Source: an uncultured Acidobacteriota bacterium
GTDB taxonomy: Bacteria > Acidobacteriota > Thermoanaerobaculia > Multivoradales > JAHEKO01
DNA length: 64,000 bases
Reading direction: 5' to 3'
Assembly (NCBI GenBank): GCA_963713825.1
Contig: CAVQNG010000005.1
Location: 160,001-224,000 of the forward strand
Of this stretch, positions 34,555-37,520 are shown piece by piece; position 1 is the stretch's first letter, and each line of letters starts with the position of its first letter. Under the pieces are notes generated by a model. That model was not told the DNA's origin and did no database searches. It saw nothing but the letters and a program-made list of their open reading frames with translations. The position numbers were made by a program, and so were the translations under genes.

Positions 34555-34782
34555 ATGCCTATGTACGAATACATCTGCAAGAGTTGTGACCACCAGTTCG
34601 AGATTCTGCAGCGCATGGGAGAGGGGGCCGAGGGCCTATCTTGTCCCAAGTGCGGTGAGAAGCGCGTCGAGAAGCAGTTCTCGACCTTTTCCAGTAGCGG
34701 TCCAAGTACCCCCACGTCGGCTGGTTTCAGTGCCGGTGCCGGTTGCGGCGGCGGCAGCGGCAGCGGCTTCAGCTGAGCGTAG
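34555..34782 (+). CDS. FmdB-family zinc-ribbon protein; candidate selenoprotein (TGA 34774-34776 read as Sec, true stop TAG 34780-34782)
   Basis: MPMYEYICKSC...CPKCG; Gly/Ser tail GCGGGSGSGFS then TGA GCG TAG; SECIS-like hairpin follows and selC lies 130 bp downstream. The CDS itself is confident; the Sec readthrough is inferred. Confidence 0.85.
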
Positions 34783-34817
34783 TGAATGAGCGGCCCGGCG
34801 GGCCGCTGAACTTTCAC
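34782..34817 (+). promoter_or_regulatory. Bacterial SECIS-like stem-loop
   Basis: Upper stem AGCGGCCC/GGGCCGCT with apical loop GGC beginning 20 nt after the UGA; lower stem GTGAA/TTCAC. Confidence 0.6.
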
Positions 34818-34911
34818 CACCTCCATCGGAAACAGAGTCGTCACGGGACTAGGCACTGCCTAGTTGGTGACTCTGTCGGGGAGAAGAGGTGTGATGGGCT
34901 AGAATCCACCC

Positions 34912-35011
34912 GGAAGCGCTCAGGGGCTGGTGCCTCTCGCGGTCTTCAAAACCGTAGTCCCGCGCCGGTGTCGGCGAGGGGGGTGGGTTCGATTCCCATG
35001 CGCTTCCGCCA
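34912..35011 (+). tRNA. selC: tRNA-Sec (UCA)
   Basis: 8-bp acceptor GGAAGCGC/GCGCTTCC; 6-bp D-stem AGGGGC-TGGT-GCCTCT; anticodon loop CTTCAAA; long variable arm; 5-bp T-stem with TTCGATT loop; G discriminator and encoded CCA; TAGAAT -10 element upstream. Confidence 0.97.
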
Positions 35012-35071
35012 CTGTCTTTCCCCCGCAAGCATGTCGATGGTCAATTCCCTCTTGGAGGTCGGCTGACTGTT

Positions 35072-35159
35072 GCGTGGGAATCGAACACGGAGGGGCAGGT
35101 ACGGGTGGTGCAGTGTAGGCGACCGTCAGGAGCCAACCCAGCTCGCTGAGCGCTTGCGC
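35072..35159 (-). pseudogene. Degenerate inverted copy of selC
   Basis: Minus strand begins CGCAAGCGCTCAG (vs CGGAAGCGCTCAG), retains D-arm and anticodon-arm similarity, and ends GTTCGATTCCCACGC (vs GTTCGATTCCCATGC) at near-identical spacing; the acceptor 3' strand is lost. Confidence 0.65.
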
Positions 35160-35203
35160 GAAGCGGCCAGAAGGCACAGTTCGTCCCGAGGTCGCGGGCG
35201 ACC

Positions 35204-35226
35204 TCGGTTCCCATGCGCTTCCGCCA
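35204..35226 (+). repeat. Direct repeat of the selC 3' end (att-like site)
   Basis: TTCCCATGCGCTTCCGCCA at 35208-35226 is identical to 34993-35011 (22/23 with the preceding 4 nt); followed by AT-rich TTTGTTTTCAATAACT. Confidence 0.88.
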
Positions 35227-35342
35227 TTTGTTTTCAATAACTCAGGTAGTTTTCGGTTGTTCTGTGAGCTGCCTCACTGAGCTCCTCTCCCAATACAATT
35301 GGGGCGGGTCGAGCTGTGAATTACCCGATGAGGAGCCGTGCC

Positions 35343-35654
35343 ATGCGCATTCGCGATCTGTTTCGACGCACCAGGGACTGCGATCATGTCGCTGAGTTGA
35401 GCGAGGTCGAACCCAACTCACCGGATTCCTGCCTGCTATGTGTCGAGATGGGAGACACCTGGGTCAACCTGCGGTTGTGCCTGACGTGTGGCCATGTCGG
35501 ATGCTGCGATGCTTCGAAGAACAAGCACGCCACTGCCCACCACAAGGAGACAGGGCACCCGATGATCCAGTCCTATCAACCGAAAGAGCGGTGGCGGTAC
35601 TGCTATGTGGACGATCAGATGGTGACGGAGGCTGATACACCAGCACGCCACTAG
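35343..35654 (+). CDS. UBP-type zinc-finger domain protein
   Basis: CDH...CLLC...WVNLRLCLTCGHVGCCDASKNKHATAH...WRYCYVD; GAGGAG RBS. Confidence 0.92.
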   Translation: MRIRDLFRRTRDCDHVAELSEVEPNSPDSCLLCVEMGDTWVNLRLCLTCGHVGCCDASKNKHATAHHKETGHPMIQSYQPKERWRYCYVDDQMVTEADTPARH

Positions 35655-35776
35655 GGACCGCTTCAGTGGTTCTTTCTCTGCCGATCTCGGCATTGCCGAC
35701 GCGAGATCGACCTTGGGCAAAGAAAAAGCCGAGGGCGAGGCCGGGCTCCGACGAGTACCACTGCCCTGGGCTGGTT

Positions 35777-37318
35777 CTACTCGATCGTGGTGCTGCACCT
35801 GTCCGTGTCGCCGGTCTCGAAATTCTCGATGAAGATCGTAGGCTCGCCAAGGAAGGTCCACACCTTGCCGGCGTCGTTGGTGGTCAGGTCGTAGTAAGGC
35901 GCGGCGATGACCATGTCGTCATAGCCGTCGCCGTCGGTGTCGCCGGTCGACAGGGACCAGCCGAAGTAGGAGGACGCCTGGTCTCCCTCGACCGCCCAGT
36001 CTGCGTAGTCAAGCGGTCCTTCAGCGCCGAGACCATCCTCGGTACCAAGCCAGAGCAGGGTCATTCCGGCGTAGTTCACGGCACCGACAGTGTGCCCGAT
36101 CGCCCCGATCAGGACGTCATCGTAGCTGTCACCGTTGTAGTTCAGGACCCTGACATTGCCACCGAACTGGTCGTTCTCGGCTGCGCCGTATGCCAGCCAA
36201 TCGTTGTTGATCGGGTCTCCATCGACGTCTCCCAGACCGTCTGCGGAGCCATACCAGACGAGAGCCATTCCATCGTTCGTTTCCATGTGGTCATAGAGTC
36301 TGATACCTACGATGAGATCGTCGTAACCGTCGGCATCGAAATCACCGCTTGCCACGGCATTCATTGCAGATGTGCCCATTCTGGCGTCTGCCTGATCTCC
36401 CTCCGCCGTCCAGTCGGCGTTGGAAGGATTCCCTGGAGCGCCGAATCCTGTGGCCGATCCGTACCACACGAACACCTTGCCCTCGTTGGCCTGGCCGGCG
36501 TCATAGAACGGAGCTCCAATCAAGATGTCGCCGTATCCGTCGCCGTTGAGGTCACCTGCGGAACCGAGAACGGTGCCGAAGCCGGCATCGTCCCAAGGGA
36601 TACACTGATCACCCATTGCGTACCAGTCGGCGCTGGCTACAGTCGTGGTACCCACCCGCGCGTTCGATCCGTAGAACAAATACCCGTGGTTGATGATGGG
36701 CGCTGCCCCATTGCAGGCGTCGTAGCGCCGGGCACCGATGAGGATGTCGTCGTAGCCATCGTTGTCGAGATCGCCAGCAGAGGCCACCTCGAGGCCTGTG
36801 TGAGCATACAGAGCGGTCCCGGTGACTCTCCAATCCCAGTTAGCGTCTAGACCGCCATTCGATCCGTAGTAGAGGAAAACAGCTCCGTCATCTGACGTGG
36901 ATGAGTCGTAGTTCGGCATGCCGATGAGAAGATCGTCGTGGTTGTCACCGTCGACGTCAGCGGCTGCGACGGCTTCGCCGAAGTAGCCATGGGCGTTGAT
37001 GACCGGAGGATTGATGATCAGGTTGGGTGTGGTGGCCGGACCGTCTTCCGAGCCGTAGAACACCCACACCCTGCCGGAACGAACCTGGCCTGAATTGAAG
37101 AATCGCGAGCCTACCGCTACATCGGAGTAGCCGTCGTTGTTGAAGTCACCGGTTGCGCTGACCGATTCTCCGAGGAAGTTCTCCAGTTGATCTTGTTCGA
37201 AGTCCCAGATTGCGTCGGCGAGAGTGGCCCAGGCGCCGATGGCAAACGCGGCCGGAGAACTGACTAGAGAAATGAGAAACGCACCCACAAGAAGCCGCCG
37301 GATCAGCTTGTTGTCCAT
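35777..37318 (-). CDS. Secreted FG-GAP (integrin alpha-like) repeat protein; probable adhesin
   Basis: AAGGAG RBS; signal peptide; about seven GDxNxDGYxD(I/L)xxGA repeats; C-terminal IFIENFETGD motif. Confidence 0.92.
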   Translation of the reverse strand: MDNKLIRRLLVGAFLISLVSSPAAFAIGAWATLADAIWDFEQDQLENFLGESVSATGDFNNDGYSDVAVGSRFFNSGQVRSGRVWVFYGSEDGPATTPNLIINPPVINAHGYFGEAVAAADVDGDNHDDLLIGMPNYDSSTSDDGAVFLYYGSNGGLDANWDWRVTGTALYAHTGLEVASAGDLDNDGYDDILIGARRYDACNGAAPIINHGYLFYGSNARVGTTTVASADWYAMGDQCIPWDDAGFGTVLGSAGDLNGDGYGDILIGAPFYDAGQANEGKVFVWYGSATGFGAPGNPSNADWTAEGDQADARMGTSAMNAVASGDFDADGYDDLIVGIRLYDHMETNDGMALVWYGSADGLGDVDGDPINNDWLAYGAAENDQFGGNVRVLNYNGDSYDDVLIGAIGHTVGAVNYAGMTLLWLGTEDGLGAEGPLDYADWAVEGDQASSYFGWSLSTGDTDGDGYDDMVIAAPYYDLTTNDAGKVWTFLGEPTIFIENFETGDTDRCSTTIE

Positions 37319-37403
37319 TTCGATCTCCTTTCGCTCGCAAGTCTCGAAGGTGATGACAAACATCAGTCGAGCACGAACTGTACTCGGCATCTCTGCAACT
37401 CGG

Positions 37404-37520
37404 GCCTTCGGTAGCTCGGCGGTCCTGGAGTCCTGCTGGGCGGAAGGTCCGTCCTGGAGGAGACAAGGACCCGTGGCTTTGCGCCCCCGACTCTCGTCGG
37501 GTTTGCCTTTGTCGTGACAC
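37404..37520 (-). ncRNA. Cyclic di-GMP-I (GEMM) riboswitch
   Basis: Minus strand GTCACGACAAAGGCAAACCCGAC-GAGA-GTCGGGGGCGCAAAGCCACGGGTCCT...AGGACCGCCGAGCTACCGAAGG matches the GEMM core (GGCAAAC, GNRA loop, GCAAAGC, CTACCGA); lies in the 5' UTR of the FG-GAP gene. Confidence 0.9.

Follow-up and report, generated by a model that had tools for sequence, protein, structure and literature searches.

Integron attC sites and the attP site of CTX phage are recombination sites formed by folding one DNA strand, and the folded single strand rebuilds the duplex target. Correia/NEMIS, RPE, ERIC and REPIN elements are small bacterial repeats that resemble miniature inverted-repeat transposable elements (MITEs). 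Allo-tRNAs are complete cloverleaves of the 8/4 or 9/3 type with a 12-bp acceptor/T branch (PMC5389517). Here we analyze a small segment that shares features with each of these systems. It lies directly behind selC, the tRNA-Sec gene, in a 64,000-nt stretch of an uncultured Acidobacteriota genome (the window; the source genome is G000, and other G numbers denote its relatives). A preliminary description had read positions 35072–35159 on the minus strand as a degenerate second copy of tRNA-Sec. We conclude with high confidence that this feature instead forms the left portion of a structured mini-insertion, whose inverted T-loop in turn holds a second small insert. What looks like an inverted tRNA-Sec is an inverted T-arm plus a hairpin (H1), to which a 51-nt unit lends the length of a tRNA. 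The locus has no second tRNA-Sec gene. With moderate confidence, we interpret the entire segment 35012–35226 as a miniature, enzyme-less insertion at a tRNA T-loop that carries the nested second insert, that is, as a non-autonomous mobile element.

The selC gene itself is intact (34912–35011, plus strand, anticodon TCA) and is recognized both by ARAGORN and by the Rfam model RF01852 (69.2 bits). The inverted piece behind it sits in a 215-bp segment that has copies of the selC tail as direct-repeat borders. On the left, the border is the tail of the gene, from T-loop to CCA (34989–35011, plus strand); on the right, it is a direct copy running from the 3' part of the T-loop to CCA (35204–35226, plus strand), with which the module ends. 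The two align as direct repeat D2 over 32 nt at 84% identity (34989–35020 versus 35204–35235), including 19 exact nucleotides at 35208–35226, and none of 300 shuffles held a direct repeat as long; the preliminary description had missed this copy. Behind the gene stands first a 60-nt spacer (35012–35071, plus strand) whose length, but not sequence, is kept among congeners, as seen in an alignment (A1) of the post-selC regions of G000 and the same-genus G001, G002 and G004. Next, on the minus strand, comes the outer half of an inverted T-arm (35072–35085; inverted repeat I1, kept in G001, G002 and G004), comprising the selC T-loop, the 3' strand of the T-stem and the first acceptor bases. The 51-nt unit follows inside the T-loop of this arm (35085–35135, boundaries ±1, minus strand), and then the inner half of the inverted T-stem (35136–35141, minus strand), which reads ACCCAG on the plus strand and is constant in most modules regardless of host (alignment A2, 18 modules). 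The remainder is occupied by three plus-strand hairpins. H1 (35142–35167) has a covarying outer stem, a tandem G-A/G-A internal loop, a GCG/CGC inner stem and a CTTG loop; a small, weakly conserved hairpin, GCC-AGAA-GGC (35166–35175), is apparent from folds and from inspection of the sequence; and H2 (35186–35207; inverted repeat I5) is a perfect 10-bp hairpin here, varying in sequence between modules while always being present.

Set against shuffles, the end blocks of the proposed inverted tRNA-Sec are significant and its middle is not. On the minus strand, 35072–35086 matches the selC T-arm and acceptor (15 nt, 93%), and 35146–35158, which falls within H1, matches the selC 5' end (13 nt, 92%). 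Across 1000 dinucleotide-preserving shuffles of 35012–35260, the 12-nt exact block of the T-arm was equalled twice, the 10-nt exact block of the 5' match never, and both blocks together never; a gapped local alignment scored 25, compared with 15.3 ± 2.3 for shuffles (8 of 2000 equal it). The two end matches noted in the preliminary description are therefore real, and its remark that the acceptor cannot close also holds, since the 3' side past the T-arm reads CGCAACAG and does not pair with the 5' piece. By contrast, the roughly 70% agreement that it had traced through the D-arm and anticodon arm is a chance match: the middle segment scores 14 against selC, and 470 of 500 shuffles equal it. The near-tRNA spacing of the matches (88 versus 91 nt) is likewise a coincidence, because the middle is a dispersed 51-nt unit that three congeners lack at selC; without this unrelated insertion the matching blocks stand 9 nt apart. 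Only the T-arm and a piece of 10–13 nt are selC-like, and no tRNA model scores, which removes the idea of a decayed whole selC copy or allo-tRNA. ARAGORN reported selC alone at the locus, and Rfam cmscan of both strands of 34800–35400 (E ≤ 10) returned only the plus-strand selC and one spurious match, with no hit of the tRNA-Sec or any other tRNA model on the minus strand.

The congeners show what the locus looks like when the unit is missing. In G001, G002 and G004 the region after selC is conserved, a 51-column gap marks the position of the unit in A1, and the inverted T-arm is uninterrupted (TGGGAATCGGACCCA). A search of 41 genomes with 34880–35300 placed matches to 35074–35139 at several other sites in G000 and its congeners. 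Assembly error does not account for the filled form that holds the unit, because a 193-nt contig from the DNA run X2 is identical to the window over 35058–35250. This contig came from a comparison of 34700–35700 with public contigs of four runs, X15–X17 being RNA libraries and X2 a DNA run of another study.

The same module recurs widely in this family. It consists of an inverted T-arm, a hairpin around GAGCGCTTGCGCGAG (H1), a short hairpin, the variable hairpin H2 and a direct tail, together about 105 nt (102–116 nt in 21 distinct modules). A covariance model built on A2 (R1), which scores 74.2 bits at selC (G000:C5:195124–195226), finds it in 24 of 45 family genomes and 12 of 20 genera, a single genome holding as many as 12 copies; the G001 copy used as a DNA query matched in 13 of the 45. 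These family tallies, like the 41-genome search, include the unpublished G006, on which no sequence-level claim relies. Modules occur behind tRNA-Ser, tRNA-Gln and selC, and each carries the T-arm and tail of the tRNA that it follows. We took a census of position from the fetched loci, where 38 matches reached 27 bits or more. Of these, 27 come after a same-strand tRNA (Sec; Ser GCT, GGA, CGA and TGA; Gln CTG; and one weak Arg TCG), five come after another module at a distance of 57–69 nt, and six, for which no tRNA was called, stand behind truncated tRNA fragments or are false matches. Where a tRNA precedes, the module starts 56–63 nt past it in 23 of 27 cases, 34 and 40 nt past it in two, and 112 and 114 nt past it in the other two because the unit sits inside the inverted T-arm there.

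The host-derived parts are copied exactly over considerable lengths. Of 23 tRNA-following modules evaluated, two showed no tail upstream; in the other 21 the exact direct repeat of the tail measures 12–23 nt (18–23 nt in 20 of them) and usually begins at the first T of the T-loop, and the exact inverted copy of the host T-arm measures 9–18 nt. Modules often form tandem arrays with a period of 159–172 nt, among them one in G119 with four copies of identical score. G000 itself has a second module besides that at selC; it lies about 59 nt behind tRNA-Gln(CTG) (C3:118908–119018, minus strand) and has diverged, with a different GC-rich hairpin (GGGGAGGGGC-TTT-GCCCTCCCC) in place of H1 and with the linker, H2 and tail copy retained. 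When about 185,000 species genomes were scanned for the exact pattern, 94 loci matched, and only 10 of the 80 loci read had a T-loop context, the others being chance matches in GC-rich genomes. Eight of these ten came from metagenome-assembled genomes titled Acidobacteriota (two of them Thermoanaerobaculia) and two from a single one titled Polyangiaceae. No Rfam family covers the module: scans (E ≤ 10) of the selC locus, of seven module loci of relatives and of the tRNA-Ser array described below returned only tRNAs and spurious matches. As far as the texts surfaced by a full-text literature search go, the module is not described in them, and the family is apparently undescribed.

Modules that lack the 51-nt unit share one predicted fold on the sense strand. 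In this fold, a closing stem of 9–14 bp between the inverted T-arm and the direct tail encloses H1, the small hairpin and H2, and about 10 nt of single-stranded tail extend to a terminal CCA. The closing stem appeared in all five sense-strand folds (z-scores −1.7, −2.9, −4.4, −5.6 and −4.0; antisense −1.0, −2.9, −2.3, −2.9 and −3.1). Covariation was scored outside the closing stem, where MAFFT shifts selC-type against Ser-type tails by one column in A2; covariation within that stem would not prove structure, because both of its sides are host copies. The outer stem of H1 covaries in A2: pair 25–47 is CG in 8 cases, AU in 4 and GC in 2; pair 27–45 is CG in 9, UG in 3, GC in 2 and AU in 1; and pair 28–44 is CG in 14 and UA in 2. 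H1 is invariant in modules behind tRNAs with quite different 5' ends. Helices shared by both strands contain 1 × 1 A-C mismatches in 2 instances on the sense strand versus 16 on the antisense strand, which places the G-U pairs on the sense strand. By predicted minimum energy, only 5 of 18 modules are more stable on the sense strand. With the unit in place, the selC module of G000 is no more stable in its fold than shuffled sequence (z −0.91 on the plus and +0.18 on the minus strand).

How might such a module arise behind a tRNA gene? We propose that site-specific recombination places it at the 5' edge of the T-loop. The insertion would bring along a replacement tail, so that the tRNA stays intact, and would leave the displaced original tail downstream. 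A recombinase encoded elsewhere would move the module in trans, and the inverted and direct tail copies, by pairing over 9–14 bp in a single strand, could rebuild a duplex target, by analogy with the folded sites of integrons and CTX phage. A putative empty form of the site comes from a 175-nt contig of the same strain (RNA library X16), which is identical over 34857–35011, including 55 nt upstream of selC, and continues after CCA with TTTGTTTTCAATAACTCAGA. This sequence equals the original downstream flank (35227–35246, plus strand) in 19 of 20 letters, and the contig thus joins the flank straight to selC, without the 215-bp segment. Collapse of the repeat during assembly is an unlikely source of this junction, we infer, because the 19-nt exact repeat is shorter than the 31-letter words of the assemblies. 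Contigs of the RNA libraries X15–X17 reach selC and its upstream region, and none is listed on the filled form over 35014–35700; such contigs cannot show absence, and the ends of an RNA are not visible in them.

Among 19 selC loci of relatives, the module is present in three of the same genus and, as a variant, in G008 of another genus; 13 loci have none, G037 has an inverted 12-nt T-arm piece with different filler, and G035 has a different direct repeat. The inverted copy is thus retained behind selC by near relatives and lacking from most of the loci compared, the module-free ones of other genera belonging to distant relatives. Congeners also differ in which tRNAs bear modules, G000 having them behind selC and tRNA-Gln and G001 having one behind tRNA-Ser(GGA). 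Some modules contain T-arm or T-loop parts of another host type (G004:C74 and G116), and in G009 and G119 modules follow selC fragments truncated at the 5' end. Classical islands also integrate at selC in this family: in G019 a gene for a tyrosine integrase (PF00589, 117 bits) follows directly after selC, and G019, G023, G040 and G016 each have one to three extra selC fragments, from anticodon loop to 3' end, 2–30 kb away. Among the alternatives offered by the preliminary description, a remnant left by an integrative element comes closest to our reading, although the remnant is not a whole inverted selC copy.

Several observations weigh against a mobile element. The empty junction in X16 could possibly reflect a reverse-transcriptase template switch across the 19-nt repeat in a read-through transcript. 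No joints or inversions were reported in the four runs, including the DNA run X2. No recombinase is linked to the module: of five PF00589 matches in G000, none lies near selC or the tRNA-Ser array. The module is present at selC in all four congeners whose selC locus was recovered, and therefore has been inherited vertically at this locus and has not moved recently. The insertion model does not explain why the spacer keeps its length (56–63 nt) and not its sequence, even within the genus. Covariation in H1 and the sense-strand bias are more readily explained by selection, whether on an RNA or on a single DNA strand, than by a dead scar. Finally, pattern scans of viral contigs yielded two loci for the unit and three for the module, all of them chance matches in unrelated sequence.

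The 51-nt unit that splits the inverted T-arm has a distribution of its own. With nhmmer, we found nine strong copies and one weak copy in G000, eight of the strong ones on contig C3. All nine strong units directly precede the 3' half of a T-loop and the tail of a partial tRNA copy, and none lies in the 49 intact tRNA genes of G000. Five partial copies of tRNA-Ser(TGA) stand on C3 at 471.6, 477.3, 488.6, 491.4 and 494.7 kb, downstream of the real gene at C3:501517–501606. Four of these span anticodon loop to CCA, with the unit between GGGTT and CGAAT of the T-loop, and two of the four hold a tandem pair of units; in the fifth, at 471.6 kb, the left part is replaced by a hairpin resembling repetitive extragenic palindromes (REP-like). 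The eighth C3 copy, at 92.3 kb, is part of another tRNA-tail array. In relatives, Leu-like and other tRNA fragments likewise carry the unit in their T-loops. Among 300 genomes of the order, 8 contain its core pattern: all six of the source genus (G000 included), G022 of another genus in the same family, and one apparent chance match. We propose that the unit is a second small insert that would seek T-loops and would survive only in non-functional T-arm copies. The idea that the unit might itself be an inverted, internally deleted copy of tRNA-Ser or selC was rejected, as all 24 comparisons (three unit copies, four tRNAs, namely selC and three tRNA-Ser, in two orientations) gave z ≤ 1.7, the best being equalled in 41 of 500 shuffles.

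The surroundings of these units are rich in related repeats. Within C3:471600–501606, the partial tRNA-Ser(TGA) copies, most of them running from anticodon loop to CCA and each with one or two units of 51–53 nt in the T-loop, bound segments of 3–11 kb with hydrolase, MFS, TetR, beta-lactamase-fold, NUDIX and BLUF genes, and the array is flanked by conserved arm-like direct repeats (TGTTGTGGAGTG... and GTGGTCCA...). None of the 24 open reading frames scanned in or beside the array (C3, 465–505 kb) encodes an integrase. Two partial copies of tRNA-Leu(TAA), at C1:36303 and 65432, share the same arm-like repeats; they stand 29 kb apart, extend from anticodon loop to CCA with intact T-arms, and probably delimit an island, the gene itself being on contig C34. 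At C3:92250–92500, tail copies of an unnamed tRNA (...TCGAATCCCGTACGCGCTACCA) are arranged in tandem, one with a truncated unit before the T-loop half, and G028 and G003 show a comparable arrangement. Another small repeat that abounds in these genomes, a REP-like hairpin (GGGAGCCCGCAAGGGGCTCCC and then CTAC), truncates the left end of some units (C3:471618 and 454387; also in G003 and G004). In G005 (C533:3848–3981) a unit is apparently fused directly to H1, with no inverted T-arm between them, which shows that the two kinds of insert recombine. In G037, which belongs to another family of the order, the region about 30–330 nt after selC holds a hairpin, 12 nt of the selC T-loop and acceptor in inverted orientation, and a threefold repeat of the form GGCTCCCTCTGACGAGGTCGC...CGATTCCC, which is similar to H2 and to the first half of the 51-nt unit and is possibly a distant relative of both.

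The best-surviving alternative to a mobile element, which we nonetheless consider rather unlikely, is that the module functions as RNA within the transcript of the tRNA, as a tRNA-like 3' trailer made of a closing stem, three hairpins and a single-stranded tail with CCA at its end. Such a trailer would serve processing (for example, entry of RNase P or RNase Z), shield the 3' end or work as a decoy. The module always lies on the strand of the tRNA and at a fixed distance from it, and no terminator-like site separates it from selC (prediction over 34600–35500 gave 0 promoters and 0 terminators). The covariation in H1 and the sense-strand bias of the helix mismatches (2 versus 16) point in the same direction, as do the single shape adopted by unit-free modules, with z-scores that reach −5.6 on the sense and −3.1 on the antisense strand, and the unpaired tail, which is identical to the tail of the host tRNA. 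However, tandem arrays of up to four equally scoring copies, together with presence and absence among congeners, look selfish, and truncated tRNA fragments, behind which modules also occur, cannot be tRNA precursors. The missing Rfam family speaks against a trailer as well, as does the G000 copy, which is split by the unit and folds like shuffled sequence; the minority of modules with the lower minimum energy on the sense strand may do so too.

We judge it quite improbable that the segment is a decayed inverted duplicate of selC (a pseudo-tRNA) or an allo-tRNA, neither mobile nor functional. What speaks for such an origin is that the constant inner T-stem (ACCCAG) is of selC type even behind tRNA-Ser and that, by eye, about 17 of the 21 bases at the selC 5' end resemble H1 plus T-stem on the minus strand; an inverted selC copy with an internal deletion may therefore have been the starting point of the module family. 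Yet neither the tRNA models (E ≤ 10) nor ARAGORN recognize the segment, and its acceptor cannot close, whereas allo-tRNAs are complete cloverleaves (PMC5389517). Moreover, a dead pseudogene would not keep covarying hairpins over 12 genera, gain the T-arms of new hosts or form tandem arrays, and the module data suggest movement between tRNA loci.

Less probable still is a regulatory fold-back, in which the inverted segment of a read-through transcript would pair with pre-tRNA-Sec and control its maturation. The two inverted matches to the selC ends are significant, no terminator is predicted before 35072, and the minimum-energy fold of 34912–35240 does pair the 5' half of selC with the trailer (−148 kcal/mol, z −2.03); with 3 of 100 shuffles folding as well, this is only marginally better than shuffled sequence. 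The cis-antisense control entertained in the preliminary description finds little support, being unspecific for selC, as the same architecture follows tRNA-Ser, tRNA-Gln and 5'-truncated selC fragments. In addition, the supposed 5' match is the invariant hairpin, found also where hosts have unrelated 5' ends; the inverted T-arm already has a partner within the module, the direct tail copy; and, at this locus, the unit that makes up the middle of the supposed antisense copy is confined to this genome. A candidate covariation between the module and selC position 12 was rejected, since this variable A/G position agrees with selC in only four of six genomes (by eye) and the A/G difference is explained by the base pair of H1 itself. 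A DNA inversion switch, in which the selC T-loop would recombine with the inverted T-loop about 90 bp downstream to flip the selC tail and turn selC off, is scarcely credible: inverted T-loops with matching stems do stand at constant distance, but about 90 bp is very short for invertase-mediated inversion, no inverted joint appeared in the four runs, no recombinase gene lies nearby, and in G000 the unit splits the inverted T-loop.

The genes neighbouring selC are ordinary, with no integrase among them. Further along, a c-di-GMP-I-GGC riboswitch (37406–37516, minus strand; 72 bits against a gathering score of 59) stands just upstream of a gene for a 537-aa FG-GAP repeat protein (35777–37390, minus strand).

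These results reveal a conserved, gene-less module that is present in roughly half the genomes sampled from a little-studied Acidobacteriota family. If it is mobile, as we favor, it would imply a T-loop-specific recombination activity; if it acts as RNA, it would be a new structured trailer linked to tRNAs. Either way, it accounts for 'pseudo-tRNA' and 'att-scar' signals that genome annotators meet. More speculatively, and with a low probability, the modules could belong to an undescribed site-specific recombination system behind the tRNA genes of this family. In such a system, gene-less modules of about 165 bp would fold as single strands into a duplex T-loop target in the manner of attC, pile up in tandem like empty integron cassettes, and carry a nested 51-nt insert that seeks T-loops.

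How does this mini-insertion compare with the described systems? With tRNA-Sec (RF01852) and allo-tRNAs it shares the T-arm sequence and 10–13 nt that resemble the 5' end. It escapes both tRNA detectors and has no closable acceptor, anticodon arm or variable arm, so that neither whole-length homology to tRNA-Sec through the D, anticodon and variable arms nor the complete cloverleaf with a 12-bp acceptor/T branch and closable acceptor of an allo-tRNA (PMC5389517) is found. Complementarity is not specific to selC either, as would be expected of a cis-antisense element, because the same module stands behind tRNA-Ser, tRNA-Gln and selC fragments. Like the MITE-like repeats, the module is small, gene-less, folded, multi-copy and restricted to a lineage. 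It differs from them in having no terminal inverted repeats of its own (by inspection, the insert ends, from 35012 and up to 35207, share none), in a duplication of 18–23 bp (19–23 bp here) that is always a tRNA tail, and in its strict target, on the same strand behind a tRNA.

Parallels also exist with the attL/attR duplications of islands and prophages that tyrosine integrases insert into tRNA genes, and with their integrase-less derivatives, the cis-mobilizable elements (CIMEs). As in these, direct repeats of the tRNA 3' part surround the insert, the tRNA remains intact, copies stack in tandem, selC serves as a hot spot (with an integrase beside it in G019), and there is a putative form with an empty site. 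The module departs from them in its insert of only about 160–215 bp, without genes or a linked integrase, and in its inverted copy of the host T-arm, covarying hairpins and spacer of fixed length; and whereas classical selC islands in this family repeat selC from the anticodon loop on (69 nt), the repeat of the module starts at the T-loop. From integrons it is set apart in that no integron integrase or attI accompanies it, the 'cassettes' are spacers of 56–63 nt, and the core is a tRNA T-loop plus tail. Nevertheless, it resembles attC and the CTX-phage attP in its architecture: two inverted core copies surround a variable, structured center, structure is kept over sequence, and the cores pair within one strand in the predicted folds. 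By analogy, the arrays of units that end in a core and the strand bias of the helices may extend this likeness.

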